From assembly GCA_903821905.1 (NCBI GenBank), contig CAIJMQ010000043.1, positions 1-58,379 on the forward strand: a stretch of 58,379 nucleotides of DNA. Reading direction: 5' to 3'. Within the stretch, counting starts at the first letter, position 1. Every line of letters begins with the position of its first letter. Shown piece by piece: positions 3,011 through 56,004 of this stretch. This DNA is from an uncultured bacterium (lineage in GTDB: Bacteria > CAIJMQ01). The notes below the pieces were generated by a model, which ran no database searches, was not told the origin of the DNA, and was given only the letters and a program-made list of their open reading frames with translations. Made by a program: the position numbers and the translations under genes.

Positions 3011-4024
3011 ATGGAAATAATGAAAGCGCAGGTTTTTTATTCTTCTTCTCATATAAAGTATGAGGATATTTCTGTCCCACAGATTACAGATGATGAAATT
3101 CTTGTAAAAGTAAAAATATGTGGCCTATGCGGAACAGATATGTACAAAATACAACAGGAATCGGTTCAATCAGGTTCTATATTGGGACATGAGGTCGTTG
3201 GAGTAATCGAAAAACAAGGTAAAAATGTTTATCATTTAAACATTGGTCAAAGAGTATTCGTAAGTCATCACACGCCCTGTTTTTCCTGTAAATACTGTAA
3301 GCACGGTACTTTTTCTCTGTGTTCTCTTTTCAAGAGCACGAACATTTATCCCGGCGGTTTCGCGGAATTTATAAAAGTCCCCAAAGATTTAGTAAAAAAT
3401 AATGTAATACCATTACCAGATTCTTTAAGCGATGAGGAAGCGGTATTAATTGAACCTTTTGCTTGTGTCTGGAGAAATATCAAGAGAATCCAGATTGATA
3501 CTGAAGACATAGTAACAATAATCGGAGCCGGTCCTTCAGGGCTTATGCATCTTATTCTTTTAAAAACTATAGGAGTAAAAAGAGTCCGCTTGGTTGATAT
3601 TGTAGATTCGAGGCTCCAATTTGCTAAAAAATTGGGCGCAGAAGATACGCTTAATGTAAAGAATGAGAAAATAGATAAATTCAAAGATTCGGATGTGGTT
3701 ATCGTGAATGCCGGCAACAAAGATGCAGTCCAGGAAGCATTAGATATAGTAAGAGTTGGCGGGAAGATAAGCATATTTGCGCAAGTCCCTGACAAGACAA
3801 AAGTCCAACTTGACCCCAATCTCATATATCACGAGACACTGATTTTAGGAACTTACTCATCTACTCCTATAGAACAGAAAGAAATATTTGATATGTTTGT
3901 AAACGGCAAGTTGAAAGATGCCACTTCCATTATCAGCCACCGTCTGCCGTTGAAGGATTTCCAGAAGGGCTTGAAACTTGCAACAGAAGCCAAAAATTCC
4001 TGCAAGATTATTTTTTATCCCTAA
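3011..4024 (+). CDS. Zinc-dependent medium-chain dehydrogenase (threonine/sorbitol dehydrogenase-like)
   Basis: Catalytic Zn motif CGLCGTD...GHEVVG, structural Zn site CFSCKYCKHG, Rossmann motif GAGPSG; 337 aa. Confidence 0.8.
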   Translation: MEIMKAQVFYSSSHIKYEDISVPQITDDEILVKVKICGLCGTDMYKIQQESVQSGSILGHEVVGVIEKQGKNVYHLNIGQRVFVSHHTPCFSCKYCKHGTFSLCSLFKSTNIYPGGFAEFIKVPKDLVKNNVIPLPDSLSDEEAVLIEPFACVWRNIKRIQIDTEDIVTIIGAGPSGLMHLILLKTIGVKRVRLVDIVDSRLQFAKKLGAEDTLNVKNEKIDKFKDSDVVIVNAGNKDAVQEALDIVRVGGKISIFAQVPDKTKVQLDPNLIYHETLILGTYSSTPIEQKEIFDMFVNGKLKDATSIISHRLPLKDFQKGLKLATEAKNSCKIIFYP

Positions 4025-20032: not shown

Positions 20033-20707
20033 ATGAAAACAGGCATAAAAGTGTTTGTAGTTTGTATTGGGGGATTAATGTTCTTTGCAGTATGGGGACA
20101 TTTCAAAGGTGGTTTTGAGAGATGGTCAGAAAAACCTATTTTAACAACTACCACACCTGTTGCTTCATCAATACCACTACAAAAACAAGACAGTTCTAAC
20201 AGTAGTAGTCTGCCTTCGGTTTTATTTCCTCAAATACAAAAACAAGAGACTCTCAAAGTCAAGGGTTTGTATATTGGTATGGATATTACCGAAGCCTACA
20301 ACATCTGTGCACAACTTTGTAAAGGTTCAGAATATAGAGTAGAGGATATCGGTGAGGTTTATAAAGAGATGGAACATACTGAACATAATAAAGAGTTTGG
20401 GTTTATCTCAGGGGGACCCGGATCCTTGGGATGGCATGGAGAGGTTTCCGCTGATAGAGATGGCAAGGTAACTTTATTACAGTTTGAGCCTGGTCTCGTA
20501 GATTACTTATTCAATGTGGGGGAGATGGAAGTTACAGACTTTGTCCAGGAATTCGCTAACTCCTATCATATACCTGAATTCAAAGTCTCTTCATCTGGTA
20601 ACTACTACTATTATGACAGCCCTACAGGATTTAGGGTAGAAATAGATATGGGTAAAAACCTAACGATAAAGGCAATCCCGAGTACTCAAGAACGGAAATT
20701 TGACTGA
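20033..20707 (+). CDS. Hypothetical membrane-anchored protein
   Basis: RBS GGAGGTAAGG; N-terminal TM helix, Ser/Thr/Gln-rich linker, ~150-aa globular domain with no motif I recognise; 224 aa. Confidence 0.5.
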   Translation: MKTGIKVFVVCIGGLMFFAVWGHFKGGFERWSEKPILTTTTPVASSIPLQKQDSSNSSSLPSVLFPQIQKQETLKVKGLYIGMDITEAYNICAQLCKGSEYRVEDIGEVYKEMEHTEHNKEFGFISGGPGSLGWHGEVSADRDGKVTLLQFEPGLVDYLFNVGEMEVTDFVQEFANSYHIPEFKVSSSGNYYYYDSPTGFRVEIDMGKNLTIKAIPSTQERKFD

Positions 20708-31064: not shown

Positions 31065-32393
31065 TTATAGAATTGAATAGTACTTATCCATTTCATAAGA
31101 AGTCACTTGAGCTCTGTAGGTGTCCCATTCCATCTTTTTATTTTCTAAAAATTTACTAAAGACGTGTTCTCCCAATGTTTCTCTTACAATCTTGCTTTTT
31201 TCTGTTAGGAGTACCGCTTCATATAAGTCCCCGGGTAGAATTTCTATGCCTAATTTTTTCCTTTCTTTTTCGCCTATCTCATATACGTTTCTTTCTATCG
31301 GGGTTTTGAGTTTATATTCTTTCTCTATGCCTTCAATTCCAGCAGCTAACATTACTGCAAATGCAAGATATGGATTGCATGCTGGGTCAGGAGCACGGTA
31401 TTCGACTCTTGTTGCTTTTTCTCTTCCCGGTTTATACATAGGTATTCTAACCAGGTCAGAGCGATTTCTCAGGGCCCACGATATATAAACGGGTGCTTCG
31501 TATCCCGGGACTAATCTCTTGTAAGAATTTACCCATTGATTAGTGATTGATGTTATCTCTTTTGCGTGTTCCATTAATCCGGCAATGAAATACTTTGCCA
31601 TCTGGGAAAGATGATACTTGTCACTCTTATCAAAGAAAGCATTCTTTTCCCCCTTGAATAAAGACATGTGGGTATGCATACCACTGCCGTTTTCTCCAAA
31701 AACAGGTTTTGGCATAAAAGTGGCATGAACACCATTTTTTAAGGCTATTTCTTTTACGATAATCCTGTAAGTCATAACAGTGTCAGCCATTGTTAATGCG
31801 TCTCTGTATCTTAAATCAATTTCGTGTTGTGAGGGTGCTACTTCGTGATGAGAGTATTCTACCGGTATTCCCATTGATTCCAGAGCAATTACTGTCTTTT
31901 TTCTCAAATCACTTGCTATATCCATGGGTGTGAGGTCAAAATATCCACCTTGATCAATTGGTTCTGCTTTTTTTTCAGAATTCTTAAAATAGAAATACTC
32001 AAGTTCCGGCCCCACGTAAAAAGTGTAGCCCATATCATGGACTTTTTTTAATATTCTTTTCAGAACATAACGGGGGTCACCATCATAAGGAGAACCATCA
32101 GGATTTTTAATATCACAAAACATTCTTGCAACCTTGACATCTTCAACTGGTCCCCAAGGTAGAATGGCAAATGTATCAGGGTCAGGCAAAGCTACCATGT
32201 CACTTTCATCTATTCTTGCAAATCCCTCTACAGAAGAGCCGTCGAACCCTTTACCTTCATATAAAGCTTCTTCCAGTTCGTTTATAGTAATAGCAAAACT
32301 TTTTAAGAATCCTAATATGTCTGTGAACCATAATCTAACAAATCTTATCTTTTCCTTTTTTGCTAATTTAAGAATCTCTTCCCTTTTATCCAT
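31065..32393 (-). CDS. glnA: Glutamine synthetase
   Basis: GS beta-grasp N-terminus and catalytic-domain motifs (GSGMHTHMS, NPY, RVEYRAPD); 442 aa. Confidence 0.88.
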   Translation of the reverse strand: MDKREEILKLAKKEKIRFVRLWFTDILGFLKSFAITINELEEALYEGKGFDGSSVEGFARIDESDMVALPDPDTFAILPWGPVEDVKVARMFCDIKNPDGSPYDGDPRYVLKRILKKVHDMGYTFYVGPELEYFYFKNSEKKAEPIDQGGYFDLTPMDIASDLRKKTVIALESMGIPVEYSHHEVAPSQHEIDLRYRDALTMADTVMTYRIIVKEIALKNGVHATFMPKPVFGENGSGMHTHMSLFKGEKNAFFDKSDKYHLSQMAKYFIAGLMEHAKEITSITNQWVNSYKRLVPGYEAPVYISWALRNRSDLVRIPMYKPGREKATRVEYRAPDPACNPYLAFAVMLAAGIEGIEKEYKLKTPIERNVYEIGEKERKKLGIEILPGDLYEAVLLTEKSKIVRETLGEHVFSKFLENKKMEWDTYRAQVTSYEMDKYYSIL

Positions 32394-32408: not shown

Positions 32409-33413
32409 TTAAAAAATCCCGTCTATTTTCGCGTCACAATGTGGGCATTTCTTGTTTTTTATATTGTTTTTAATCACGGTGAATCCATATCTTTCAATTA
32501 GTATATTCTTACAATTATAGCAATAAGTATTCTCTCCTTCATCTCCCTGCATATTCCCAGTATATACATATTTTAATCCTTTATCTATACCCATTTCTCT
32601 TGCTTTGGTTAAAATGTGTGCTGAAGTGGGGGGAATATCGGTCATAAGATGGTTTGGATAAAAGGCAGATAGATGCCAGGGGATTTCTTTTCCCACTTCT
32701 TTTATGAAGTCAGCTATATCTGTAAGTTCTTCAATGGAATCGTTTACTTTAGGGATGACCAAAGTTGTAATTTCCACCCAAATACCGAGTTTTTTCATAA
32801 GTTTTATACTATTTTCAACCGGCTCCAGTTTTCCTCCGCAAATTTTTTTATAAGTGTCTTCTCTAAAAGATTTTAAATCGACATTACAAGCATCTAAAAG
32901 GTGAGTTATTTTTTCTAAAGGTTCGCTGTTTGTATATCCGTTTGTGACAAAAATATTTTTTATCCCCTTTGCATGTGCGAGAGTACAACAATCATATGCA
33001 AATTCATAGAAGATTGTCGGTTCTGTATAAGTATATGCAATAGATTTACATCCGGTTTTTAGTGCATTTTTTATTATTTCTTCAGGATTGGTGTCTCGAC
33101 CTGGGATTATGGAATCTTTATCTATCTGTGATATTTGCCAATTTTGACAATTACGGCAGGAAAGATTACACCCAACCGTGGAAATTGAATATGAGAAGGA
33201 CCCGGGAAGTATGTGGAAAATGGGTTTTTTCTCAATGGGGTCTACATTCTCTGCAACGACTTTACCGTATACAAGAGAATAAAGTTTTCCATCTATATTC
33301 TCCCTAACATTGCATAACCCTCTTCTTCCGATTTTTATTAGACAGTTGTGCGGACACAAAAAACACCTTATATCATTGTTAGGTTCTGTCTTATAGAATA
33401 ACGCCTCTTTCAT
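32409..33413 (-). CDS. AmmeMemoRadiSam-system-type radical SAM enzyme (PFL-activase-like)
   Basis: Characteristic N-terminus (DIRCFLCPHNCLIKIGRRGLCNVREN...GKLYS), radical-SAM Cx3Cx2C (CNLSCRNC), and a C-terminal CxxC...CxxC zinc ribbon; 334 aa. Confidence 0.75.
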   Translation of the reverse strand: MKEALFYKTEPNNDIRCFLCPHNCLIKIGRRGLCNVRENIDGKLYSLVYGKVVAENVDPIEKKPIFHILPGSFSYSISTVGCNLSCRNCQNWQISQIDKDSIIPGRDTNPEEIIKNALKTGCKSIAYTYTEPTIFYEFAYDCCTLAHAKGIKNIFVTNGYTNSEPLEKITHLLDACNVDLKSFREDTYKKICGGKLEPVENSIKLMKKLGIWVEITTLVIPKVNDSIEELTDIADFIKEVGKEIPWHLSAFYPNHLMTDIPPTSAHILTKAREMGIDKGLKYVYTGNMQGDEGENTYCYNCKNILIERYGFTVIKNNIKNKKCPHCDAKIDGIF

Positions 33414-33556: not shown

Positions 33557-33793
33557 ATGTCAGACATTGAACAAAAAGTAAAGGATATTATTGTAGAACA
33601 ATTAGGAGTTAAAAAAGAACAAGTAACAGAGACAGCTTCCTTTATTGATGATTTGGGGGCCGATTCTCTGGATACTGTAGAACTAGTAATGGCGTTAGAA
33701 GAAGAATTTAACATAGAAATACCTGATGAAGAAGCGGAAAAAATTCGAACCGTGGGAGAAGCAGTAGGTTATATTAACAAGCACGGCAAATAG
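33557..33793 (+). CDS. acpP: Acyl carrier protein
   Basis: [20 protein letters not shown] phosphopantetheine-attachment motif; 78 aa. Confidence 0.95.
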
Positions 33794-33946: not shown

Positions 33947-35191
33947 ATGCAACCTAAACGCGTAGTTATTACAGGGATGGGATGTGTTACACCTATCGGT
34001 AATAATCTTGAAGAATTTTGGGCATCCCTTCTTGAAGGCAAAAGCGGAATACGTAGGATAACTTATTTCGACGTTTCGCTTTATTCCACTCAGATTGCTG
34101 CAGAAGTTAAAAATTTTGACCCAAGTCCCTACATAGACGCTAAAAGTGTGAGACGTCTGGATAAGTTTGCACAGTATGCTATTGTTTCAACTTATATGGC
34201 TTTCAAGGATGCCGGTATAGATTTAACAAAAATAGATAAAGAAAAAGCCGGTGTTATTTTAGGCTCAGGTATTGGAGGATTACAGGTTATAGAAGACCAG
34301 CATGCTATTATTATGGAGAAAGGTCCTTCAAAAGTTTCTCCGTTTCTCATTCCGATGCTTATAGCTGACGAAGCTCCCGGCCAGATAGCAATCAACTGTG
34401 GTTTTAAAGGCCCTAATATGTCCATTGCAACAGCTTGTGCTTCAGCTTCTCATGCAATAGGAATATCTTTTAGAACGATTCGTTATGGAGAAGCAGATAT
34501 AATGGTTACCGGCGGTAGTGATGCTGCTATAACACCTCTTGGTTTAGCCGGTTTCAGCCAGATGAAAGCACTCTCAGCACGTAATGATTCACCGGAAGAA
34601 GCATCCCGTCCTTTTGATAAAGAAAGAGACGGTTTTGTTATGGCTGATGGCGGTGGAATACTTATTCTTGAAAGTTTGGAACATGCTAAGAAAAGAGGCG
34701 CTCGTATATATGCCGAGCTGGTCGGTTTTGGGATGACTGCAGATGCCTATCATATTACTGCTCCAGACCCTGAAGGTGAGGGTGCAAGGTTGGCTATGTC
34801 TGGAGCACTTAAAGACGGCAATATTAATTTATCCGACGTTGGCTATATAAACGCGCACGGAACTTCTACGCAATATAACGATAGAATAGAAACACTTGCG
34901 ATAAAGAAACTTTTCGGAAAGAATGCTTACAACATACCGATTTCTTCAACCAAATCGATGACAGGACATATGCTTGGAGCCGGAGGAGCTGTTGAGTTGA
35001 TTGTTTGCGTTAAGACAATAGAGGAAGGCATTATTCATCCTACTATTAATTATAAAAATCCAGACCCTGAATGTGATTTAGATTATGTCCCCAACAAACC
35101 CAGAGAAAAAGAAGTCAAAGTTGCAATATCCAACTCTTTCGGTTTCGGTGGTCATAATGCCTGTATTGCAGTTAAGAAATTTGAAGATTAA
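33947..35191 (+). CDS. fabF: 3-oxoacyl-ACP synthase II
   Basis: KAS active-site Cys ([10 protein letters not shown]), the HGTST and [11 protein letters not shown] His motifs; 414 aa. Confidence 0.92.
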
Positions 35192-35212: not shown

Positions 35213-36352
35213 ATGGATTTCAATTTGACCGAAGAACAAGAATTGATGCTTGAACAAGTAAAAAAAGTTTGCAAAGAAAAAATTGCACCTAGAGCTGATG
35301 AGGTTGAAAAGGGAGGAAAATTTCCCAAAGAAAACCTCAAGCTTTTATCCGATATGGATTTGTTGGGATTAGTTATTCCTGAAGCATACGGCGGTTTAGG
35401 AATGAATTTTCTTACTTGGACATTAATGGCGGAAGAAATATCCAAAGCCTGCGGGACTACAGGCCTTTCTTTCGGTGCAAATCTACTCTGCGTATATCCT
35501 CTTATGACATTCGGCACCGAAGAGCAGAAAAAGAAATATCTCCCACATCTTGCTAAAGACGGAATCGGTGCTTTTGGCCTTACTGAACCCGAAGCTGGTT
35601 CCGATGCCGGGAACGTTAAGACAACCGCAAAAGAAGACGGCGATTCATATATCATAAATGGTAGAAAGATATTCATAACAAACGGCGGTGAAGCATCTAC
35701 ATTCATAATCATTGCTACTACAAGACCAAACAAAGGTGCTAGAGGTTTTACTGCTTTCATAGTAGAAAAAGGAACTAAAGGTTTTTCTGTTGGACAGCAC
35801 TTTGACAAAATGGGATTTGCAGGCCTATCAAATGTGGAACTAGTATTTGACGATTGCAGAGTCCCCAAGGCAAACATTCTCAACCAGGAAGGCAGAGGCT
35901 TTAGAGTTGCTATGGAGACTTTTGATTTAGGAAGAATTGGAGTAGGAGTCGGAGCGTTAGGTGTTGCAGAATCAGCATACGAGAAAGCACTTCAGTATTC
36001 CAAAGAAAGAATCCAGTTTGGCAAACCAATATCATCATTCCAGGCAGTCCAGCATATATTAGCGGATATGGCTACAGAGATTGAAGCAGCAAAGCTAATT
36101 CTATATGAAGCCGCCTGGCTTAAAGATAACGGCAAACCTTTCGAGAAAATTGCTTCAATGGGCAAACTATATGCCTCCGAAGTCGCAATGAACACTACGG
36201 TCAAAGCAGTTCAGGTATTTGGAGGGTCAGGCTATATGAAGGACTATCCAGTTGAACGGCTTATGAGGGAAGCGAAACTTTTTGAAATCATAGAAGGCAC
36301 ATCACAAATCCAAAGAAACATTATTGCTAATTTCATCCTTAAAGGGCAATAA
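35213..36352 (+). CDS. Acyl-CoA dehydrogenase
   Basis: ACAD motifs ([16 protein letters not shown], catalytic region [15 protein letters not shown]); 379 aa. Confidence 0.9.
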
Positions 36353-36403
36353 TCTTTTACAGTAGTTTTAATTAAGACGAGATTGCCACGCTCACTATGT
36401 TCG

Positions 36404-36436
36404 CTCGCAATGACATATTGAGGTTGTCATTGCGAG
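36404..36436. repeat. Perfect 12-bp-stem hairpin (CTCGCAATGACA-9 nt loop-TGTCATTGCGAG) just downstream of the acyl-CoA dehydrogenase gene
   Basis: Exact inverted repeat with no following U-tract. Confidence 0.6.
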
Positions 36437-36462
36437 GAGTTTACGACGAAGCAATCTCTCTT

Positions 36463-36608
36463 TTATAACAAAATACAAGAAAAACGCAAAAATACAGCAT
36501 TTTTAATCAATTTTTGTTCATTTTTTAACAAAAATTAACGTTTTTTAAAAAGTTTATAAGTAAAAATATTGGCATATTTTCAACAAAATGCTCAATTTTT
36601 TAACAAAA
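36463..36608. repeat. Four dispersed copies of a TT(W)(W)(A/C)AACAAAA motif in an extremely AT-rich ~230-bp stretch upstream of the DUF2971 gene
   Basis: Copies at 36463, 36523, 36578 and 36598. Iteron-like or regulator-binding-site-like. Confidence 0.4.
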
Positions 36609-36669
36609 AACACTTATTTTTATGCAAAAAAGAGTGATTTTAATTAAAAATTATAGTTTTTTTAAATAA

Positions 36670-37467
36670 ATGGATATAACACCTAAGCCACAAATACTTT
36701 ACAAATATAGATCACTTTCTGAAGACAATTTCAGATTTACTCGGGATATATTTATAAAGAATGAACTATATTTCCCATATCCCAATCAATTCAATGACCC
36801 ATTTGATTGTAATATTTTCCCTTGTGTGAAAGATATTACTAAAGAACAAATATTTAAAAAGATTGAGAATATTAAACCTGAAAAATTTGTGGCTATGGGA
36901 ACTAATTTAGATAAAGTTAAACAAACCATTAATAATAAATCCGAATCAGAGTTAAAAACATATTTATTGGATAAATACAAAATCCACCAGCATGTGGGAG
37001 TGTTATCTTTATCCGAGAAGAATTTAGATATTCTAATGTGGGGACACTATGCAGATTCTCATAAAGGAATTTGTATAGGCTTTGCTTGTAATAAATTACT
37101 TTTTTATTTTGATGGCAAACCATCTGTTCCTTTTGAAGTTAATTATCCTCCATCTAATAAATATCCAGAATGGAATCCTCTTGCTTGTACTGGAGAAGAA
37201 TTAATCGAAAAAATACTACTTACTAAAGCAGTAGGTTGGGAATATGAACAAGAATGGAGAATCATACTCCCCGAAAAAGGAGGGACTTCACAGGAACTTG
37301 ACCCTGATGCACTAATTTCGGTATATCTTGGTTGCAAAATTACTGAACAAAACAAAAAAACTGTCATCAGTTGGTGTTTGCAGAGGAAGCAAAAACCGAA
37401 AATATATGAGACAAGAGTAGATGAATCATCTTATTCACTAAAAGATAATGAGATCATATACTTCTAA
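36670..37467 (+). CDS. DUF2971-family protein
   Basis: Family-typical N-terminus (LYKYRSL...ELYFPYPNQFNDPFD) and a later MWGHYADSHKGICIGF block; 265 aa. Confidence 0.7.
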   Translation: MDITPKPQILYKYRSLSEDNFRFTRDIFIKNELYFPYPNQFNDPFDCNIFPCVKDITKEQIFKKIENIKPEKFVAMGTNLDKVKQTINNKSESELKTYLLDKYKIHQHVGVLSLSEKNLDILMWGHYADSHKGICIGFACNKLLFYFDGKPSVPFEVNYPPSNKYPEWNPLACTGEELIEKILLTKAVGWEYEQEWRIILPEKGGTSQELDPDALISVYLGCKITEQNKKTVISWCLQRKQKPKIYETRVDESSYSLKDNEIIYF

Positions 37468-38771
37468 ATATCCTTCTCGCCTTCTACTTCCATTGGACGT
37501 AAGCGCGTTACGCTGAAGAAAAGGTCTAAGCTGCTTATTTTCTCCACGCGTCTGACTTCTTTTATTAGAGGAAGAAATGCTATCACGAATATAGCGCGTA
37601 ATACTCCCGAAATCAGGAACAAGGTAAACAGCCGATATCCGAAAATCGGCGGAAGATTTTTTGCCAGAAAACCGCCTATGAGTGCTCCGATGCAGACGGC
37701 TAAACCGTTAATAACATTAAGATATGACGCACATCGAATTCTCTTCTCAGGCGTAACTACGTCGTAAATGAAATTAAATACGGATAAACCATATCCTGCC
37801 CATATAAAACCCGAGAAAAACTGGAGCAAAATCATGTAACCGACATTATGCGAGAAGAACCACATGAAAGGAATGATTGGTATGAATAAAGATGTAAGCT
37901 GTATGACTTTCATGTTACCTACTAGGTCGGCATGCCTGCCCCATATCCCCATTGTAAGAAGTGTGGAAATTGTAGATGCTATCATCACGGCCGTGTAGGT
38001 TGCATAGTTAATGTTTAAATCGCGTAGCATATAAACAGCAAAGAAGGGGCTTGCCATATTTACTGCAAAGCTCATGCTTGCTACATATAAAACAAACTTT
38101 CCGAAATTAGATTCTCTACCTCTTTTTATGAAATCAAAGAAAGTGAAATAATGTTCCTTGGTGACTTTCATCGGCGGGTCATACATTTTGCTCAAGTAAT
38201 ACCAGGAAACGAATCTTGCTGCGCAGCCAACTCCTATTATTATTGTAAATCCTATTAGTTTATCTTTGCCGAAAGCGTTCAGGATAAAACCTGCCAGAAA
38301 AGCACACGTTACAGTTATCATCCCCAGCAATCTGTTTCTCCATCCGAAATATTTTCCGCGGCTCTTATATGGTATATGGTCAGCCATAAGACTCATCCAG
38401 GCTGGTCCGGGGAAAGCATTAAAAGATGCCATAAGGGTAACGAATAATATGAGCCACAATGCCCTGTTTGCCTTGAAGATGAACGGAATCAATAAAATCG
38501 GTATATACATGAATGCATGAAAGAAAACGAATATTGTTATTATTTTGACGCGGCTTTTGAGATGTTCCGTTACGTCCGCAGATTTTAGCTGTGTAAGAGA
38601 AGAAACAAGACTCGGGAAAGCTGCAAGCATACCTATTTGAGAACTTGTTGCTTTGAGTGCGACAGCAAAAGGAGTAATATACTGGTCAATGAAACCTGAC
38701 ATTACTGAACAGAATGCCCCGTCGAGGAAGGAATTCCTCAGGCTTTGTCTTAGTCTCCCTTTCTTATTCAT
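37464..38771 (-). CDS. MFS-family transporter
   Basis: 12 predicted TM helices with an MFS-like loop (GWRNRLLG); 435 aa. Confidence 0.7.
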   Translation of the reverse strand: MNKKGRLRQSLRNSFLDGAFCSVMSGFIDQYITPFAVALKATSSQIGMLAAFPSLVSSLTQLKSADVTEHLKSRVKIITIFVFFHAFMYIPILLIPFIFKANRALWLILFVTLMASFNAFPGPAWMSLMADHIPYKSRGKYFGWRNRLLGMITVTCAFLAGFILNAFGKDKLIGFTIIIGVGCAARFVSWYYLSKMYDPPMKVTKEHYFTFFDFIKRGRESNFGKFVLYVASMSFAVNMASPFFAVYMLRDLNINYATYTAVMIASTISTLLTMGIWGRHADLVGNMKVIQLTSLFIPIIPFMWFFSHNVGYMILLQFFSGFIWAGYGLSVFNFIYDVVTPEKRIRCASYLNVINGLAVCIGALIGGFLAKNLPPIFGYRLFTLFLISGVLRAIFVIAFLPLIKEVRRVEKISSLDLFFSVTRLRPMEVEGEKDI

Positions 38772-38826
38772 AGAGATAATATTATATCAGAGAAGATACA
38801 TGGAAATTTCTAACAGGGAAAAAGGA

Positions 38827-38857
38827 TTGACTATTCTGACTGGACATATACTATAAT
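38827..38857 (+). promoter_or_regulatory. Candidate promoter for the ZIP transporter gene. The -10 region lies within the imperfect palindrome CATATACTATAATATG, a possible metal-regulator box
   Basis: TTGACT ... TATAAT with a long (19-nt) spacer, so the promoter call is weak. Alternative -10 TATACT. Confidence 0.3.
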
Positions 38858-38902
38858 ATGACTCCAAACAATTTATAAAACTTTTTAGTGAGGAGGTGCT
38901 AG

Positions 38903-39682
38903 ATGCCCATGATAAAAATATGGCTTTGGAGTATTGCAAGCGTAGTAATTGTGAGTTTGATTTCTTTAATTGGTTTGTCTACTTTTGGAATAAAGACTGA
39001 AACGTTGAAGAAATTTTTGATTTATATGCTTGCTTTCTCTGCAGGAGCGTTGTTCGGCGATGCTTTTATACATTTGATACCGGGGATTGTTAAAAAACAA
39101 GGAAGTTTTGGTCTGTTTCCTTCGATATCCCTGCTTTCTGGAATAGTGCTGTTTTTCATAGTTGAGAAATTCATCCACTGGCAACACTGTCACATACCTG
39201 TCTCAAAAGAACATATCCATCCTTTTACTTATATGAATCTCGTGGGAGACGGAGTCCATAATTTTATTGACGGATTGATTATTGCGGGAAGCTATCTCGT
39301 TAATCTTCAAATCGGGATTGCGACAACGTTAGCTGTAGTTTTTCATGAAATTCCAAAAGAGATGGGAGTTTTTGGAGTTTTAGTACACGGAGGTTTCAGT
39401 AGGGGAAAAGCACTTGCATTAAACTTTCTTACTGCGTTGATTGCTGTTTCAGGAACCATTATTGCTTTACTGATTGGAAGTGAGGTCGCAGATATAACAA
39501 CATCTATTTTACTACCGATTGCAGCAGGAGGATTTATTTATATTGCAGGAGCTGATTTGATTCCTGAACTGCACAAAGAAACCGCGTCCCACTCTTCACC
39601 TCAGGTTGCCGCTTCTTTACTTCAACTGCTTGCTTTTGTATCGGGAATAGGAGTTATGGCTCTTCTGCTTCTTCTTGAATGA
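38903..39682 (+). CDS. ZIP-family divalent metal transporter (ZupT-like)
   Basis: HNFIDGLIIAGSY and HEIPKEMG metal-binding motifs; 259 aa. Confidence 0.85.
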   Translation: MPMIKIWLWSIASVVIVSLISLIGLSTFGIKTETLKKFLIYMLAFSAGALFGDAFIHLIPGIVKKQGSFGLFPSISLLSGIVLFFIVEKFIHWQHCHIPVSKEHIHPFTYMNLVGDGVHNFIDGLIIAGSYLVNLQIGIATTLAVVFHEIPKEMGVFGVLVHGGFSRGKALALNFLTALIAVSGTIIALLIGSEVADITTSILLPIAAGGFIYIAGADLIPELHKETASHSSPQVAASLLQLLAFVSGIGVMALLLLLE

Positions 39683-39747
39683 AGTCTAATCCAAGTTAAA
39701 CATTTTTAAATGCAAGTTTTTTGATTTTTGATATAATAAATCCCATT

Positions 39748-40542
39748 ATGAATACAATTGTCTGTATAAAACAGGTGCCTGATACTGAACATCTTCAAGA
39801 AGTAACGATAAATCCAGAAACTAATACACTTGAGAGAGAAAAAATCCCGGCGGTTATTAATCCTTTTGATGTGAATGCCATAGAAGAAGCTGTTCGCATA
39901 AAAGAAAAGCAGGGCGGAAAGGTTACGGTTATGACAATGGGTCCGCCTCAGGCAGAGGAAGCTCTAAGGACTGCTTTGGCAATGGGAGCTGATGAGGCAA
40001 TACTTTTGACTGATAGAGCGTTTGCAGGTTCAGATACGTGGGCTACAGCCAAAACTTTAGCAAGAGCTATTAAGAAAATAGGTGCATTTGACCTTATACT
40101 GTTTGGTAAGCAGGCGATTGATGGGGATACTGCTCAGGTAGGGCCTGAAGTTGCCGAAGCTCTTTCTATTCCCCAGATTACATATGTAAGTAAATTAGAG
40201 GTTGAAGATAAAAAGGTAAAGGGAAGAAGAACCGTAGAAGATGCATATGAAGAAGTAGAAGCTAATACTCCTTGTGTAATAACGGTTACTAAAGATATAA
40301 ATGAGCCACGGTTTGCTTCAATAAAAGGGCTTCTCAAAGCGAAAAAAGCGGAAATTATAAAATGGGGAAAAAATGATTTGGCTCTTAAAGATGAAGAGGT
40401 TGGCTTGAATGGTTCTGCAACACAGGTTATAAAAATATTTTCTCCGCCTAAAAGAGGAAAGGGAGAAATGATTACGGGTGATTCTGCGGATGAAAAAGCA
40501 AGTAAACTCGTAGAAAAATTGAAAGCGGACAAGATTATATAA
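39748..40542 (+). CDS. etfB: Electron transfer flavoprotein beta subunit
   Basis: MNTIVCIKQVPD start and AMGADEAILLTD motif. The track ORF begins at 39721, but conservation begins at the ATG at 39748. TGaTATAAT lies just upstream. Confidence 0.85.
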   Translation: MNTIVCIKQVPDTEHLQEVTINPETNTLEREKIPAVINPFDVNAIEEAVRIKEKQGGKVTVMTMGPPQAEEALRTALAMGADEAILLTDRAFAGSDTWATAKTLARAIKKIGAFDLILFGKQAIDGDTAQVGPEVAEALSIPQITYVSKLEVEDKKVKGRRTVEDAYEEVEANTPCVITVTKDINEPRFASIKGLLKAKKAEIIKWGKNDLALKDEEVGLNGSATQVIKIFSPPKRGKGEMITGDSADEKASKLVEKLKADKII

Positions 40543-40644: not shown

Positions 40645-41511
40645 ATGTTCATCTCTATGACAGGTTCTGCAACAAAGAAAGTTTCTTCAAAATGGGGGGA
40701 TTTCACATTTGTTTTAAGCAGTTTCAATCATCGTTTCTTGGAGATAAACACTCATATTCCCAATGAACTTAGAAGCGGAGAAGTTGATATCCAGAAACTT
40801 ATAAGAAGCAAAATATCAAGGGGGCAAGTAAATTTTCATATTGAATGGGAGCCGGGCGGAAAAGAAGAGGGATTCCATATTAACACCGCTCTTTTGGAAA
40901 ACTATTATAAAAGTTTAGATGAAGCAAGAAAAAAATTAGGACTTCAAGAGGAAGTAAGCTTTTCCTTGTTGATGCAATTGCCGGATGTAATTGTTCATAA
41001 GAAAACATTTTTAAGCCCTAACTTATGGTCGTTCTTAAATAAAAACATAAGTATTACATTAAACGAGTTGAATGAAGTGAGAAAGAAAGAAGGAGCAGAG
41101 CTTCATAAGGATATCAATCAGAGAGTAAATATCATTTCCAAAATTATCCAAGAGATTAAAACGGTACTCCCGACAATTATTAAAGAATACAAAGGGAAAC
41201 TTGAGCAGAAACTTTCTCCTGTTACCAGCAACGGACTTAGAGAAAAAATAGCACAGGAAGTTATGGTTCAGGCAGGGAAAATTGATATAACCGAAGAAAT
41301 GATACGAGTCTATTCTCATCTAAAGATGTTTATTGAGGAAATGAAGAAGAAGTTGAGCTCAGGAAAAAGATTGGATTTTATATCTCAGGAGATGTTACGG
41401 GAAATAAATACTATGGGTTCTAAAATATGCAGCGCTGATATTTCTTCAAAGATTATATATGTGAAGACGGAACTCGATAAAATAAGAGAACAACTCAGGA
41501 ATGTCGAATAG
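40645..41511 (+). CDS. yicC: YicC-family stress-induced endoribonuclease
   Basis: ISMTGS start and a C-terminal YicC helical domain; 288 aa. Confidence 0.8.
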   Translation: MFISMTGSATKKVSSKWGDFTFVLSSFNHRFLEINTHIPNELRSGEVDIQKLIRSKISRGQVNFHIEWEPGGKEEGFHINTALLENYYKSLDEARKKLGLQEEVSFSLLMQLPDVIVHKKTFLSPNLWSFLNKNISITLNELNEVRKKEGAELHKDINQRVNIISKIIQEIKTVLPTIIKEYKGKLEQKLSPVTSNGLREKIAQEVMVQAGKIDITEEMIRVYSHLKMFIEEMKKKLSSGKRLDFISQEMLREINTMGSKICSADISSKIIYVKTELDKIREQLRNVE

Positions 41512-42982: not shown

Positions 42983-44258
42983 TTTAGGTGGAGATATGAC
43001 TATAACTGAGAAAATATTAGCCTTACATTGCGGAGAGAAAAAAGTTACTCCGGGACAGTTTATACTTGCCGATGTTGATATTGCGCTTGGTAATGATATA
43101 ACTGCGCCGTTAGCTATTGAAGAGGTGGAAAAATTAAATAAAAAAAATCTGCCTCATCCTGAAAAAGTTGTTCTTGTTTCTGACCATTTTACGCCCAACA
43201 AAGATAAAGAATCTGCTAATCAGTGTCTAGTTGTCAAGAAATTTGCTAAGAAGTACGCGATAAATAACTATTTCGAATTGGGTTGTGGCGGTATTGAACA
43301 TGCACTTCTTCCAGAAGAGGGGTTCATTTACCCGGGAGAACTTATTATCGGTGCTGATTCTCATACTTGTACATATGGTGCCTTAGGAGCATTTGCAACA
43401 GGTGTGGGTAGTACGGATTTGGCTTTTACTATGATGTCAGGAAAAATATGGCTTAAGGTTCCTGAAAGTATGAAATTTATTTACAGCGGTAAGTTAAGAG
43501 AATGGGTAACTGGAAAAGATTTGATTCTTTATGCGATTGGTGATATCGGTGTTGATGGTGCTCATTATAGAGCTATGGAATTTAGAGGAGAAGCAATAAG
43601 TAAACTATCTGTCGACGGACGTTTGACAATGTGTAATATGGCTATTGAAGCTGGTGGTAAGAGTGGGATAGTGGCTCCAGATGAGACTACACTAAAGTAT
43701 ATTGAACAATTCAAAATACCAAAATCTAAAATAAAAGTTTTTGAGAGTGATAAAGATGCCAAATATGTTGATATAAAAGAATATGATGTGGGAGAAATAG
43801 AACCGCAAGTTGCCTTTCCTCATCTTCCGTCTAATACTAAACCTGTTTCCCAAGCTGGTAATGTTAATTTGGACCAGGTTGTTATTGGTTCCTGTACTAA
43901 TGGAAGATTGGAGGATTTGAGAATTGCGGCTAAGATTCTGAAAGGGAAAAAAGTTCATCCATATCTAAGAACGATTATTATTCCAGCTACTCAAAAGATA
44001 TATTTACAAGCTCTGAAAGAAGGGCTTATGGAGATATTTATCAATGCGGGTGCTGTTGTTTCTCCTCCAACTTGTGGTCCTTGTATTGGCGGACATATGG
44101 GAGTGTTGGCAAAGGGAGAAAAATGTCTTGCTACAACAAACCGCAATTTTGTTGGCAGAATGGGTGATAAGGAAAGCGAAGTTTATCTGGCTTCTCCTGC
44201 TGTTGCTGCTGCTTCAGCAGTAAAAGGAAAAATAGCAGATCCTGCTGAGGTTATGTAG
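42969..44258 (+). CDS. leuC: 3-isopropylmalate dehydratase / homoaconitase large subunit (type 2)
   Basis: Aconitase-family Fe-S ligand motifs (GADSHTCT, SCTNGR, CGPCIGG); the start may be the ATG at 42996 (MTITEKILA). Confidence 0.85.
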   Translation: MDRNNLGGDMTITEKILALHCGEKKVTPGQFILADVDIALGNDITAPLAIEEVEKLNKKNLPHPEKVVLVSDHFTPNKDKESANQCLVVKKFAKKYAINNYFELGCGGIEHALLPEEGFIYPGELIIGADSHTCTYGALGAFATGVGSTDLAFTMMSGKIWLKVPESMKFIYSGKLREWVTGKDLILYAIGDIGVDGAHYRAMEFRGEAISKLSVDGRLTMCNMAIEAGGKSGIVAPDETTLKYIEQFKIPKSKIKVFESDKDAKYVDIKEYDVGEIEPQVAFPHLPSNTKPVSQAGNVNLDQVVIGSCTNGRLEDLRIAAKILKGKKVHPYLRTIIIPATQKIYLQALKEGLMEIFINAGAVVSPPTCGPCIGGHMGVLAKGEKCLATTNRNFVGRMGDKESEVYLASPAVAAASAVKGKIADPAEVM

Positions 44259-44267
44259 AGGCAAACC

Positions 44268-44774
44268 ATGATAATAAAAGGTAAAGCACACAAATTTGGC
44301 GACAATATAAATACAGACGATATTATTCCTGCTATATATCTTGTTACTACGGCTATAAAAGAGCTTGGAAAACACTGTATGGAAGGGATAGATGCATCTT
44401 TCCCGAGCAAGGTAAAAGAAGGTGATATCATTGTTGCAGGTAAGAATTTTGGATGCGGTTCATCGAGAGAACATGCGCCTTTGGCTATTAAAGGTTGCGG
44501 TATATCTTTAGTGATTGCCGAGTCCTTTGCCCGTATATTCTATAGGAACTGCATAAATGTAGGGCTTCCCATTATTACTTCACAAGAGGTTTGTAAGAAT
44601 ATTAATGCGAAGGATGATATAGAAGCGGATTTATTGAAAGGGGAAATTAAAAACATAACCAAAAATAAAGTTTTCCACATAGATTCTTTCCCCCCGCTTT
44701 TACAGGATATAATAGAAACCGGTGGTTTGATTAAATGGTATTTAAAGGGTAGAATTTTTTCTCCGAAAAAATAG
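44268..44774 (+). CDS. leuD: 3-isopropylmalate dehydratase small subunit (type 2)
   Basis: Aconitase swivel domain, [14 protein letters not shown]; 168 aa. Confidence 0.85.
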
Positions 44775-46676: not shown

Positions 46677-48083
46677 ATGGAAATCCCTCAAAATAGTTTA
46701 GCAAGGAGTTTGCCGAGTCAGCTATTTTTCTTAACAGGAGAAACTCCCGAAGCTATTGTAGAACAGCTTGAAGTTCTGGAAAGTTTTCTCGAGAAGAGCC
46801 AGGAAGTATCTCTTTGTGATTTGGCTTACAAACTCTATCTTGAGAATTCTAAAAAGAAACAAAATCCTAATAATCAAACACTTGCCATTGTGACTGAGTC
46901 CTTAGAAGAGCTGAAAAAGAAGATTAAATTCGCTAAAGATTTACTTAAACAGCATCCTGAAGTTATACCTGCCAGCCATTTTGTAGGTGGGGGAGATTAT
47001 AAAGGCATATATTTTTCTTCTAACCCAATCCCAAAACCCGGGAAAATCGCTTTTATTTTTTCCGGGCAGGGTTCTCAGAGACCTAATATGTTAAAAGATT
47101 TAACAGTTCTTTTCCCGCAAATGCAGGAAAGTATTTCAAGAGCAGACCTTGTTCTTAAAAACCGTTTTCCCAAGTTGTTAAGTGAGTATATCTATCTTTC
47201 TTCCTCTTCTACTCCGCAGGAGGAGCAACTTAATATGGAAAAGTTAACGCAAACCAATATTGCTCAACCTGCTCTTGGTGCTGTGGAGACCGGACTGTTG
47301 AAAATTATGAAACTATTCGGTGTGAATCCGGACATGGTAGCAGGACATAGCTTAGGTGAATATGTGGCTCTTTATGCAGGCGGTGTTTTTGAAGAGGAAA
47401 TTCTGTATGAGCTTTTGGAATATAGAGGTTCGACAATCATAAATTCAAGTAAGGGTGGCGATTTGGGTAAAATGCTTGCGGTCGGTGGGAATGCAAAAGA
47501 TATAGAAGGAATTATTAAAGAAGTAGATAATGTATATATTGCAAACTTGAATTCTCCTACCCAAACAATACTTTCAGGCAACGAAGAAGCGCTTGATTTA
47601 GCAAGTTCTAAGCTTGAAGAGAAAGGTTTTAGGTCTAAGAAAATAAATGTAAGTTGTGCTTTCCATTCTCCGTATATGGCTCCTGCAAGGGATTTGCTGT
47701 TTAAAAAGTTGTCTTCTCTGGATTTTAAAACTTCTTTAATCCCGGTTTATTCCAATCTAACAGCTACTCAGTATCCCGAAGATAAAAAATCAATACTCTC
47801 TATTTTAAGCAACCACTTAATCAGTCCTGTCAACTTTACAGACGAAGTGGAAAATATGTTCAGAGACGGAGCTAAAATATTCATAGAAATTGGTCCAGGT
47901 AATGTTCTAACAAATCTCATCAAACAGATTCTTGATGATAAAGAGTATCTGGCTATACCTTCAAATATAAAAACTGTGTCTGATATCAGCCAAATCCTTA
48001 ATGTTCTTGCCCAGCTTATGGCTGAAGGGTTTAAAGTTAATATATCTCCTATATTTGAAGATAGAAACTTTAGAGTGTCATAG
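46677..48083 (+). CDS. Standalone acyltransferase (malonyl-CoA:ACP transacylase-like AT domain) with an N-terminal PKS-type KS-AT linker-like extension
   Basis: GQGSQ, active-site GHSLGE and AFHS motifs, preceded by ~120 aa resembling the post-KS linker of modular PKS/PUFA synthases; 468 aa. Confidence 0.75.
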   Translation: MEIPQNSLARSLPSQLFFLTGETPEAIVEQLEVLESFLEKSQEVSLCDLAYKLYLENSKKKQNPNNQTLAIVTESLEELKKKIKFAKDLLKQHPEVIPASHFVGGGDYKGIYFSSNPIPKPGKIAFIFSGQGSQRPNMLKDLTVLFPQMQESISRADLVLKNRFPKLLSEYIYLSSSSTPQEEQLNMEKLTQTNIAQPALGAVETGLLKIMKLFGVNPDMVAGHSLGEYVALYAGGVFEEEILYELLEYRGSTIINSSKGGDLGKMLAVGGNAKDIEGIIKEVDNVYIANLNSPTQTILSGNEEALDLASSKLEEKGFRSKKINVSCAFHSPYMAPARDLLFKKLSSLDFKTSLIPVYSNLTATQYPEDKKSILSILSNHLISPVNFTDEVENMFRDGAKIFIEIGPGNVLTNLIKQILDDKEYLAIPSNIKTVSDISQILNVLAQLMAEGFKVNISPIFEDRNFRVS

Positions 48084-54369: not shown

Positions 54370-56004
54370 TTGATAGATATGAATAAAAATAGAATTATAA
54401 TTGTTTTGTTTTCAGTTGTTTTTTTATTCAGTGTAAATAATTCGGCAATGGCTGCGGGAAAACAATACTTATCTCCCTTTCTATCATTTGAAGGTTTATT
54501 CCCAGTTTCGGTTGCACAATTCGGGACTGGAGATTTTTCAATGGGTTTTTGGTTTCAAAACCCCGAGAGATGCCCTAATTATTTTGTTATAAATGTTCAA
54601 GACCCAGGCCAATCAAAATATGTCGTTGTTGGATGGCCTCAGGGGCAGGAAGTTTTGCAGGCAATTATGCACTCCGGTTCAACCACTATAACCGCCCAGA
54701 CAGATTATACTCTTTCAAGCACTCCCCATTTGCTTTTTTTGACATGTGATAGGAGCGAAACAGATGGCTTGAAGTTATGGTTAGATGGAGTTGTTGTCGC
54801 AACAGAAAATCCAACTTCTTTAGCTTCTATTGATTTCAGCCCAAGTTCCGAAACAGGAATAGTCCATATTAATTCTGGTGCTATTCAGAGTGGATTTGAC
54901 CCAGGAGACCAACTTTTTGATGATGTTCAGATATACACTGGGAAAGCATTCACCCCTGCCGAAATGGCTACAATCTGGAATAACGGAAAGGGCACGGAGG
55001 TAAATGAAACGACATTTGCATCTATTGTAAGCAATGGGGCTTATTGCAATTTTAACGGCAATAATTTTTATACTTATTCCACTGGAGCAGTTTCTTTTAT
55101 TGAAGGAGAAAACATTATTAACGGTGTCGGGACAAGTTGGACGGAAAGTATGAACCATGGAACAATCTATATTCCATCAATAGATAAAAAGTATCTGATA
55201 CTCTTTGCTATGCCAAATAATCCACCATATCAGGAAGGCGATGCAATACTCATCGGAAACGATGAAGTATTGCCAAGCAGCGGAAGCGAAGTTTCATATG
55301 TAATTACTGCCATAGGATTAAATATCCCAATGAGAAAATTAATAAACGGTGTTTGGTCTGATGAAAACTTGGTTTTTGCAGATTATATTGGGCGTGATTT
55401 TTCAGTTGGTGGAGTTCCTTTTACACCTACCACCACGGCTATCGCTACCGCAGGAGGAAATCCATATACTTTTGATAATTGGTCAACCTCCTTACCGATT
55501 TTAGTCACCTTAAGCTGTGATGATGTTTCTGGCCCTGGTTGTGGTACGACTTATTATTGTTCCGATACGGATAATAGTTGTACGCCAACAACAGTTTATT
55601 CAAGTGCAGTGTCGGTTTCTACTGCAGGGACGTCATATATCAGATTCTATTCTACGGACATGAATGGTGCCTCAGAAGCGATAAACAGTTCGACAATCAA
55701 AATATACCCCACTCCTTCCGCCAATGTAGACATTTCCTCAATTGATAATAGAAGTAATAATTGTTTCATAGCTACAGCTACTTATGGCACTCCAATGGCA
55801 GAGGAAGTTAGAGTTTTAAAGCAGTTTAGAAACGAATACCTGCTTACAAACCCGATAGGAGAAGTATTTGTAAACACTTACTATAAAATGTCTCCACACA
55901 TCGCCGATTTTATAAGAGTACACACTATATTAAAGAAGCCAGTTAGATTTATATTAAATCCTTTGATTTGGGTGAGCAGAAAAATAACAGAAGCAAGGTA
56001 TTAG
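54370..56004 (+). CDS. Secreted LamG/concanavalin-like domain protein with a conserved Cys-initiated C-terminal tail
   Basis: Signal peptide, a LamG-like block (LKLWLDGVVVATENP), and a C-terminal ~75 aa beginning NCFIATATYGTPMAEEVRVLKQFRNEYL; 544 aa. Confidence 0.6.
   Translation: MIDMNKNRIIIVLFSVVFLFSVNNSAMAAGKQYLSPFLSFEGLFPVSVAQFGTGDFSMGFWFQNPERCPNYFVINVQDPGQSKYVVVGWPQGQEVLQAIMHSGSTTITAQTDYTLSSTPHLLFLTCDRSETDGLKLWLDGVVVATENPTSLASIDFSPSSETGIVHINSGAIQSGFDPGDQLFDDVQIYTGKAFTPAEMATIWNNGKGTEVNETTFASIVSNGAYCNFNGNNFYTYSTGAVSFIEGENIINGVGTSWTESMNHGTIYIPSIDKKYLILFAMPNNPPYQEGDAILIGNDEVLPSSGSEVSYVITAIGLNIPMRKLINGVWSDENLVFADYIGRDFSVGGVPFTPTTTAIATAGGNPYTFDNWSTSLPILVTLSCDDVSGPGCGTTYYCSDTDNSCTPTTVYSSAVSVSTAGTSYIRFYSTDMNGASEAINSSTIKIYPTPSANVDISSIDNRSNNCFIATATYGTPMAEEVRVLKQFRNEYLLTNPIGEVFVNTYYKMSPHIADFIRVHTILKKPVRFILNPLIWVSRKITEARY

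Follow-up and report, generated by a model that had tools for sequence, protein, structure and literature searches.

The question that this locus raises is why a gene for the beta subunit of an electron-transfer flavoprotein (ETF), etfB, has no gene for the alpha subunit, etfA, next to it and lies 3.4 kb away from an acyl-CoA dehydrogenase (ACAD) gene. The locus is in contig CAIJMQ010000043.1 of an uncultured bacterium (GenBank assembly GCA_903821905.1), and the whole stretch that was analysed, positions 1 to 58,379, is referred to as the window. An earlier note on this DNA had reported that the ACAD gene (35213-36352, + strand) and etfB (39748-40542, + strand, 264 aa) are separated by 36353-39747, which carries a DUF2971 gene, an oppositely oriented gene for a major facilitator superfamily (MFS) transporter and a gene for a ZIP-family metal transporter, and that etfB leads directly into yicC with no etfA; both statements are correct. 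When the whole window was searched by tblastn with five EtfA proteins the best match had an E value of 0.4, and the Pfam domain PF00766 (ETF_alpha) was not found in any of its 49 large open reading frames (ORFs). The explanation that we favor, and that we consider probable as a whole, is that etfA left this position long ago, that the junction between ACAD and etfB was opened later and became a slot of variable content, and that etfB is functional with an EtfA whose gene would lie elsewhere in the genome.

The lack of etfA is older than the split between ACAD and etfB

About 100 related loci, designated here by L and a number, were compared, and motif counts were made over 170 fetched loci. 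A scan of a genome collection with EtfB gave 80 loci, mostly from Omnitrophota with others from Nitrospirota, Elusimicrobia, Aerophobetes and Clostridia, and an EtfB protein search followed by contig look-ups gave ten further loci from independent assemblies. In about 70 of the 80 related loci ACAD, EtfB and EtfA are contiguous, with EtfB followed directly by an EtfA of about 400 aa that has an N-terminal ferredoxin domain with two [4Fe-4S] clusters. Thus, the premise that such ACAD genes normally lie beside etfBA holds in this group, and because the three genes are adjacent in so many relatives the gene order in the window is a derived one. The exceptions were the window itself, L001 (87%) and L003 (84%), which are its two closest relatives in that scan, two contigs that end early, and L072 and L074. 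A metagenome scan with an EtfA alignment, in which 80 loci were listed from at most 600 stretches and which was not exhaustive, showed EtfB upstream in all listed loci of the ferredoxin-domain EtfA that had sufficient sequence. In two of these metagenome loci, L132 (5042-6010) and L155 (5202-5927), there are about 0.7-1 kb between EtfB and the ferredoxin-domain EtfA, and therefore insertions occur at the EtfB-EtfA junction too.

The loci without an adjacent etfA, namely the window, L001, L003, L081-L090, L171 and L172, represent 13 distinct loci whose EtfBs are 67-91% identical. In a neighbour-joining tree they were monophyletic and lay within etfA-adjacent lineages, with the Aerophobetes locus L002, where etfA is adjacent, as their sister. 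Every locus with an EtfB of this 264-aa type that is at least 67% identical is without etfA, and in each clade locus that reaches past etfB this gene runs straight into yicC-gmk-nadK, which gives the clade the gene string ACP-FabF-ACAD-EtfB-YicC-Gmk-NadK (ACP, acyl carrier protein). In the deep members L088, L090, L171 and L172 (67-70% identical) the order is radical SAM-ACP-FabF-ACAD-EtfB-YicC and ACAD and EtfB are contiguous or overlap by 4 nt, and still there is no etfA. Since these unsplit deep members also lack it, etfA disappeared from its position a single time, and earlier than any insertion that parted ACAD from etfB. The absence of an adjacent etfA is therefore an older trait of the whole clade. 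The earlier note had held that ACAD and EtfB were once adjacent and were split by inserted DNA, and this stands, as the four deep members and about 70 other loci have the two genes abutting; its link between the insert and the loss of etfA does not stand, as the unsplit relatives are without etfA as well. We also considered a gap in EtfA identities as the mark of a missing sister clade and rejected it, as by EtfB distances the P0033 group has no special sister relationship to the clade. In L088 there is an in-frame TGA (9063-9065) at a conserved Trp codon of ACAD, which is TGG in the others, so that the gene was called as two pieces of 68 and 268 aa; the TGA may be an error of sequencing, a nonsense variant in the population, or a case of recoding.

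EtfB is a conserved beta subunit of the CarD type

The start of etfB is the ATG at 39748 (MNTIVCIKQVPD, common to all homologues) and not the TTG upstream of it. The protein matches the Pfam ETF domain PF01012 with 184.6 bits against a cutoff of 26.7, and its residues 1-263 align with residues 1-261 of CarD (6FAH_B) with an E value of 6.7e-86. Its flavin/nucleotide-site motif FGKQAIDGDTAQVGPEVAE is identical to that of CarD and of 5OL2_B, and GxQAIDGDTAQVGP is what we take to be the motif of bifurcating-type EtfBs. It remains below the cutoffs of the NCBIfam models NF040731 (334.5 versus 445 bits) and NF042971 for AcrB (274 versus 475 bits). The ACAD has three ACAD Pfam domains and its best structural matches are 4L1F_A (E value 3.3e-117) and 5OL2_C (3.2e-110), with CarC (6FAH_C) at 9e-93, and against the equivalog model of AcrC, an acryloyl-CoA reductase, it scored 458.5 bits where the cutoff is 640; we refer to it as Bcd/CarC-like.

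The closest known systems are CarCDE of Acetobacterium woodii (6FAH) and the Bcd-EtfAB complexes of Clostridioides difficile and Acidaminococcus fermentans (5OL2, 4KPU, 4L1F). The EtfB of the window is colinear with CarD and has DGDTAQVGP in common with it, and the sister lineages have a CarE-like EtfA with a ferredoxin domain in the order ACAD-EtfB-EtfA; with the Bcd systems the locus shares a Bcd-like ACAD and the DGDTAQVGP found in the EtfB of C. difficile. This likeness to bifurcating systems is one of sequence and does not reach the NCBIfam equivalog cutoffs. Unlike in these systems, there is no gene for EtfA or CarE adjacent or anywhere in the 58 kb, the unit follows acpP-fabF and is not in a fermentation operon, and ACAD and etfB are 3.4 kb apart, with etfB having its own putative promoter.

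The dN/dS ratio (nonsynonymous to synonymous substitutions) of etfB was 0.075 against L001 and 0.061 against L003, with dS above 1 and thus saturated, and these values were similar to or below those of yicC, gmk, nadK and leuCD. The ACAD was 93-94% identical in amino acids to that of the relatives of the sub-clade, with a dN/dS of 0.034. The etfB ORF was intact in 13 of 13 clade loci. Out of 84 columns in which etfA-adjacent EtfBs reach a conservation of 90% or more, 74 were unchanged in the clade without etfA, including DGDTAQVGP, and the exceptions included G32K, E75T, S101A, Y102K, P190A and P224A. When the variability profile of 32 EtfBs of the clade was compared to that of 88 other homologues retrieved by the same search, which were taken as etfA-adjacent with adjacency checked for only some of them, the correlation was r=0.65. 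The C-terminal arm of EtfB, which presumably clasps EtfA, was equally constrained in the clade, and region 181-200, where we assume the ACAD-recognition loop to be, was more conserved in it. On this evidence the protein is evidently a conserved, working ETF beta subunit.

An EtfA encoded elsewhere or an EtfB that works alone

Since the constraint on EtfB is unchanged, the protein works in essentially the same structural context as its homologues, which argues that a partner EtfA is encoded elsewhere in the genome. This is the most likely reading and we hold it to be rather probable. Several observations weigh against it, or against the wider explanation of which it is a part. No etfA has been located for any member of the clade; it is absent from the 58-kb window and from 10 kb on either side in 12 related loci. 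In two EtfA protein searches, for which the queries were the EtfA of the sister locus L002 and P0227, none of the best 120 matches each was placed on the long contigs of the clade (593, 145, 120, 71 and 69 kb), which is not evidence of absence, and a stand-alone ferredoxin-domain EtfA was not found among the 80 listed metagenome loci. A few near-invariant positions of EtfB are changed (G32K, Y102K, P190A and P224A) and the rate of EtfB relative to ACAD is slightly higher in the clade than in etfA-adjacent lineages. Finally, the recombination mechanism and the etfB promoter described below are both read from the DNA itself.

The alternative that survives best is that the clade has no EtfA at all and that EtfB acts alone, either as a homodimer that would mimic the base formed by domains I and III or as an NADH-binding flavin module docked on the ACAD. 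It would account for the absence of etfA from every locus of a deep clade with tightly packed operons and for the lack of a candidate among the matches listed in the EtfA searches. The clade-specific replacements at sites where etfA-adjacent EtfBs hardly vary and the modestly faster change of EtfB than of ACAD also fit it, as does a second, independent occurrence of etfB beside fab genes without etfA or ACAD in L072 (10001-10786, Zixibacteria) and L074 (3540-4307, Ignavibacterium). In these two loci the gene orders are FabG-ACP-FabF-RNase III-EtfB and ACP-FabF, a gap of about 0.9 kb, EtfB, respectively, and their EtfBs form a long branch and have the flavin-site motif altered to DDDSAQVP. To our knowledge, however, the ETFs that have been characterised are all alpha/beta heterodimers, in which the FAD (flavin adenine dinucleotide) that shuttles electrons sits on domain II of EtfA, as in the structures 6FAH, 5OL2 and 4KPU. 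The constraint profile of EtfB is unchanged with the C-terminal arm included, and the searches for etfA covered the best 80-120 matches and not whole genomes. We therefore regard an EtfB acting in a clade devoid of EtfA as unlikely, and judge in much the same way the broader notion that this EtfB works without a canonical EtfA. A little less likely still is that the whole clade runs an ACAD that is wired to acpP-fabF on such a stand-alone EtfB, a minimal ETF architecture that has never been described and that might be an EtfB homodimer or a direct ACAD-EtfB reductase dependent on NADH, possibly in fatty acid synthesis.

What makes the locus of some interest is that strong selection has maintained an ACAD and a bifurcating-type EtfB beside acpP-fabF throughout a deep uncultured clade in which etfA is not nearby. 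If, as we favor, etfA lies at another place in the genome, what we see is an oddity of gene order, and the locus combines ordinary genome plasticity with a moderately unusual case of a conserved etfB without an adjacent etfA; if etfA were truly absent from the whole genome, this would call into question the rule that an ETF must be an alpha/beta heterodimer.

Linkage of ACAD and EtfB to fatty acid synthesis genes

In the window the ACAD gene is preceded by acpP (33557-33793, + strand), which encodes ACP, and by fabF (33947-35191, + strand), which was identified by its Pfam ketoacyl-synt domains; these two genes make up the conserved portion of the ACP-FabF-ACAD-EtfB unit that lies upstream of ACAD. 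The same order recurs in loci from Omnitrophota, Nitrospirota and Elusimicrobia. The ACAD/EtfB unit is often preceded by ACP-FabF, or, in Nitrospirota, has FabD-ACP-FabF downstream of it. Linkage of ACAD and EtfB, with or without the ferredoxin-domain EtfA, to acpP-fabF was seen in L014, L027, L029, L033, L053-L055, L094, L099, L103 and L113-L115, among others. This repeated linkage across these and other phyla suggests a role tied to type II fatty acid synthesis, for example as an ETF-dependent enoyl-thioester reductase. A search of the literature on an ETF-dependent enoyl-ACP or acyl-ACP dehydrogenase, on ETF in Omnitrophota and on etfB without etfA yielded nothing relevant, and we found no published explanation for the linkage of ACAD/ETF with fatty acid synthesis genes, which is directly testable.

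The interval between ACAD and etfB is a strain-variable slot

In the sub-clade with EtfBs at least 74% identical to that of the window, ACAD and EtfB were always separated, by 1.2-4.7 kb, and the content of the interval differed from one relative to another. In the window it holds the DUF2971 gene, the MFS gene on the - strand and the ZIP gene. In L001 it holds a BNR lipoprotein, three ORFans and the MFS gene on the - strand; in L081 a GT2/methyltransferase protein, a PMT_2 protein and a small TauE; in L082 a 167-aa ORFan and TauE; in L083 a 158-aa ORFan, the MFS gene on the - strand and TauE; in L084/85 a 236-aa ORFan and the MFS gene on the - strand; in L089 a BNR protein and small ORFs; and in L086/87 AP_endonuc_2 and GFO_IDH_MocA proteins. 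The only cargo that recurs is the MFS gene, TauE, and the BNR protein with a remnant of the 238-aa ORF of L001, which are common to L001 and L089, and by PADLOC and Pfam the cargo of the relatives is mostly ORFans. L082 and L083 have identical EtfBs and flanks with 98.6-99.95% nucleotide identity over about 17 kb, but have nothing in common from the ACAD stop codon to 16 nt before TauE. The interval in the window is thus one state of a strain-variable slot that was opened inside an ancestral ACP-FabF-ACAD-EtfB-YicC string, with ACAD as its left and etfB as its right conserved flank.

There was no integrase or transposase among the 49 window ORFs by Pfam, no tRNA gene within the 58-kb window, and no target-site duplication, terminal inverted repeat or flanking direct repeat bracketing 36353-39747. 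The simplest mechanism would be replacement of the cargo by homologous recombination in the conserved flanks. Strain-variable and defence islets are like this slot in having fixed core flanks with unrelated cargo even at 99% flank identity, and in combining a defence candidate with ORFans and no mobility genes. The slot differs from them in its very small size, with one to five genes in 1.2-4.7 kb, in lying inside a former operon of functionally coupled genes and in having a conserved spacer with phased T-tracts at its left edge. It is an ordinary example of strain-variable accessory or defence DNA, and is notable mainly for its location in a formerly tight operon, and also because a putative new, conserved promoter of the genes downstream would have allowed such a split to persist.

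Cargo genes

The DUF2971 gene is the first cargo gene (36670-37467, + strand). Its product of 265 aa matches PF11185 with 48.8 bits against a cutoff of 22 and the PADLOC model PDLC04990 (PDC-S31) with an E value of 4.7e-58, residues 5-260 being aligned to positions 4-256 of 259 in the model. With 31.1% GC it is the lowest in GC of the 49 genes of the window (z=-2.7), and the gene is absent from all the related loci that were compared. DUF2971 is the sole recognised domain of Aristaios, a lactococcal antiphage protein for which protection against phage was shown by experiment (PMC11381338), and DUF2971/Aristaios has been assigned by prediction to the DarT-like ADP-ribosyltransferases (PMC12522546). 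The protein of the window has the E-x-E stretch WEYEQEWR, which is consistent with the ADP-ribosyltransferase motif III described in that report (PMC12522546). It resembles Aristaios/PDC-S31 in its full-length match to the PDC-S31 hidden Markov model, the Pfam domain, the E-x-E stretch and being encoded by a single gene in a variable locus. It differs in length (265 aa versus 316 aa in Aristaios) and in that Aristaios is from a lactococcal plasmid whereas the gene of the window is chromosomal, in an Omnitrophota-like genome. From these likenesses we infer that it is a single-gene phage-defence candidate of the PDC-S31/Aristaios type.

The MFS transporter (Pfam MFS_1) is encoded at 37464-38771 on the - strand. 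Its orthologues in L001, L083 and L084 are 74-76% identical to it, with 74-90% identity among the four genomes, and because it is common to them the gene is older than this genome; no orthologue is present in L081, L082, L086 and L089. Its GC content at third codon positions (GC3) is unusually high (z=+2.7). The ZIP transporter (38903-39682, + strand) matches PF02535 with 159.8 bits against a cutoff of 35.1 but is below the cutoff of the ZupT model (55.8 versus 252 bits), its composition is ordinary, and at this site it is unique to the window, L081-83 having a 119-aa TauE here and L001 and L084 nothing. No specific NCBIfam equivalog was found for either the MFS or the ZIP protein. A defence candidate together with transporters and ORFans is the typical content of an accessory islet.

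The left edge of the slot and the case for a single insertion

The earlier note had pointed to a perfect 12-bp hairpin and an ultra-AT-rich stretch with iterons beyond the ACAD gene, and both are real. The hairpin (36404-36415 and 36425-36436) is the core of a palindrome of about 80 nt (36379-36458) with a folding energy of -38.3 kcal/mol (z=-5.05 versus shuffles) and with the outer arms GAGATTGC and GCAATCTC, and its left arm is identical over 39 nt to an element at the equivalent place in L082. The motif GTCATTGCGAG...CGACGAAGCAATC occurred in 9 of the 170 fetched loci, with up to nine copies in one of them (L007) and a single copy in the 58-kb window. Copies were found at 388-418, 1326-1401, 3395-3477 and 8164-8227 of L007, where palindromes are present in both the ACAD-EtfB and the EtfB-EtfA spacers, at 8806-8838 of L082, and in L016 and L150; the family, which is from Omnitrophota-type genomes, has the form GATTGC...CGCTCGCAATGAC / GTCATTGCGAGGAG...CGACGAAGCAATC. 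The hairpin is a member of a dispersed palindrome family that is like REP (repetitive extragenic palindromic) elements. As in REP elements, the palindrome is imperfect, about 80 nt long, intergenic and just past a stop codon, and related genomes have several dispersed copies of its core motif. It differs from them in its one copy in the window, in matching no Rfam family, and in that no RAYT-type transposase was seen, although none was specifically looked for. Over 36200-39900 Rfam gave no RNA family, and scans with terminator and promoter consensus sequences were no better than shuffles.

The AT-rich spacer (36470-36669) has 16.5% GC compared to 36.9% for the window, and its "iterons" are two exact copies of TTTTTAACAAAA with degenerate copies. 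By nhmmer and MAFFT, orthologous blocks lie downstream of ACAD in L081 (6396-6580), L082 (8876-8997), L083 (7240-7341) and L084/85 (7512-7836 in L084), and in each relative the block is followed by an unrelated cargo gene. The block has been kept despite saturated synonymous sites in the flanking genes; what is conserved in it are T-tracts about 10-11 bp apart with variable spacers containing G or C. It reaches within about 25 nt of the start codon of the first cargo gene in the window and in L084, and ends about 100 nt before the cargo gene in L081. We read the block as a putative curved-DNA or promoter region that borders the slot on its left. A box, TTCGATGGyTTACGATGyGGGATTAGTCAATT, is common to L081, L083 and L084 and is absent from the window. 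A sigma-54 reading of the GGCTTACGATGCGGG block of the same three loci was rejected because its spacing and conservation do not fit; the window has no such block.

In the version of events drawn from the earlier note, 3.4 kb of foreign DNA came in by one recent insertion, the hairpin and the AT-rich stretch are its scar, and etfA was lost through it or along with it; we consider this very unlikely. ACAD and EtfB are indeed adjacent in outgroups, and DUF2971 and ZIP are unique to this genome. In composition DUF2971 is foreign, the MFS gene is deviant in its GC3, the ZIP gene is ordinary and codon-usage distances are unremarkable, which agrees in part with a slot whose cargo is replaced. The MFS gene has orthologues in L001, L083 and L084, the palindrome and the AT-rich block both occur after ACAD in relatives with other cargo and so are not acquisition scars, the lack of etfA predates the split, and neither target-site duplications nor terminal inverted repeats nor recombinase genes are present. 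This is therefore a hypervariable region with several cargo positions and different content in each relative.

A promoter-like element before the detached etfB

In the unsplit relatives etfB is translationally coupled to ACAD, as L088 has AAGGAG inside the 3' end of ACAD and L090 a 4-nt overlap. In the split loci, namely the window, L001 and L081-84, TTTTTTGATATAAT precedes the ATG of etfB by 10-13 nt and a Shine-Dalgarno sequence is lacking, and L089 has a variant of TTTTTTGATATAAT; it is absent from the unsplit L088 and L090. In the window it has the form of an extended -10 promoter-like element, TGATATAAT, at 39729-39737 (+ strand), which is 11 nt upstream of the ATG. Its conservation in the split sub-clade suggests a dedicated promoter and a near-leaderless etfB-yicC-gmk-nadK transcript, with a predicted start near 39744.

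The history that we favor then runs as follows. An Omnitrophota-related lineage inherited a tight ACP-FabF-ACAD-EtfB-YicC-Gmk-NadK string that had by then lost the ferredoxin-fused etfA, which the sister lineages have. The ACAD/EtfB junction opened at a later time, in the sub-clade of the window, and became a hypervariable accessory slot, the content of which is swapped between strains, most likely by homologous recombination in ACAD and the AT-rich spacer to the left of the cargo and in the MFS gene or the etfB promoter to the right of it. Here the slot holds a recently acquired AT-rich DUF2971 gene, an older MFS gene and a lineage-specific ZIP gene. The detached etfB-yicC block would be read from its own conserved extended -10 promoter, and the partner of EtfB is most probably an EtfA from another part of the genome, with the Bcd/CarC-like ACAD next to the slot as the enzyme that EtfB would serve.

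That etfB is a decaying remnant after the loss of etfA, as the earlier note had also proposed, is hardly credible: there is no adjacent partner gene and the EtfB/ACAD rate ratio is slightly raised, but the ORF is intact in all 13 loci, the dN/dS is 0.06-0.08 at saturated dS, 88% of the family-conserved columns (74 of 84) are kept, and a conserved, dedicated promoter-like element precedes the gene. A chimeric interval misjoined during metagenome assembly is the least probable explanation of all, as nothing specific favors it beyond the metagenome-type source of the sequence, and independent NCBI, ENA, JGI and Logan assemblies have equal flanks with an interval at the equivalent place and the MFS gene and the spacer in common.

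Other genes of the window

Upstream of acpP and on the - strand are genes for GlnA (31065-32393) and for an AmmeMemoRadiSam radical-SAM protein (32409-33413). Downstream of etfB, yicC (40645-41511, + strand; Pfam YicC N and C domains, TIGR00255) is followed on the + strand by the genes for Gmk, NadK, LeuC and LeuD; the gene order of the region was read from the six-frame ORF list and from Pfam/NCBIfam scans. The remaining ORFs of the window, about 40, are housekeeping genes only by Pfam. Three other stretches, 46677-48083, 54370-56004 and 20033-20707, encode one FabD-like acyltransferase, which has an extra N-terminal region of about 125 aa, and two sizeable ORFs (544 aa and 224 aa) with no Pfam match. 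In the window leuC and leuD are directly adjacent (44258-44268), and in relatives a gene for a PF05635 protein (23S rRNA intervening-sequence protein) lies between them or just after them (L082, 15157-15555; L083, 15055-15453; L084, 15456-15806; L086, 16244-16642), so that the leuC/leuD junction looks like another small variable insertion site.

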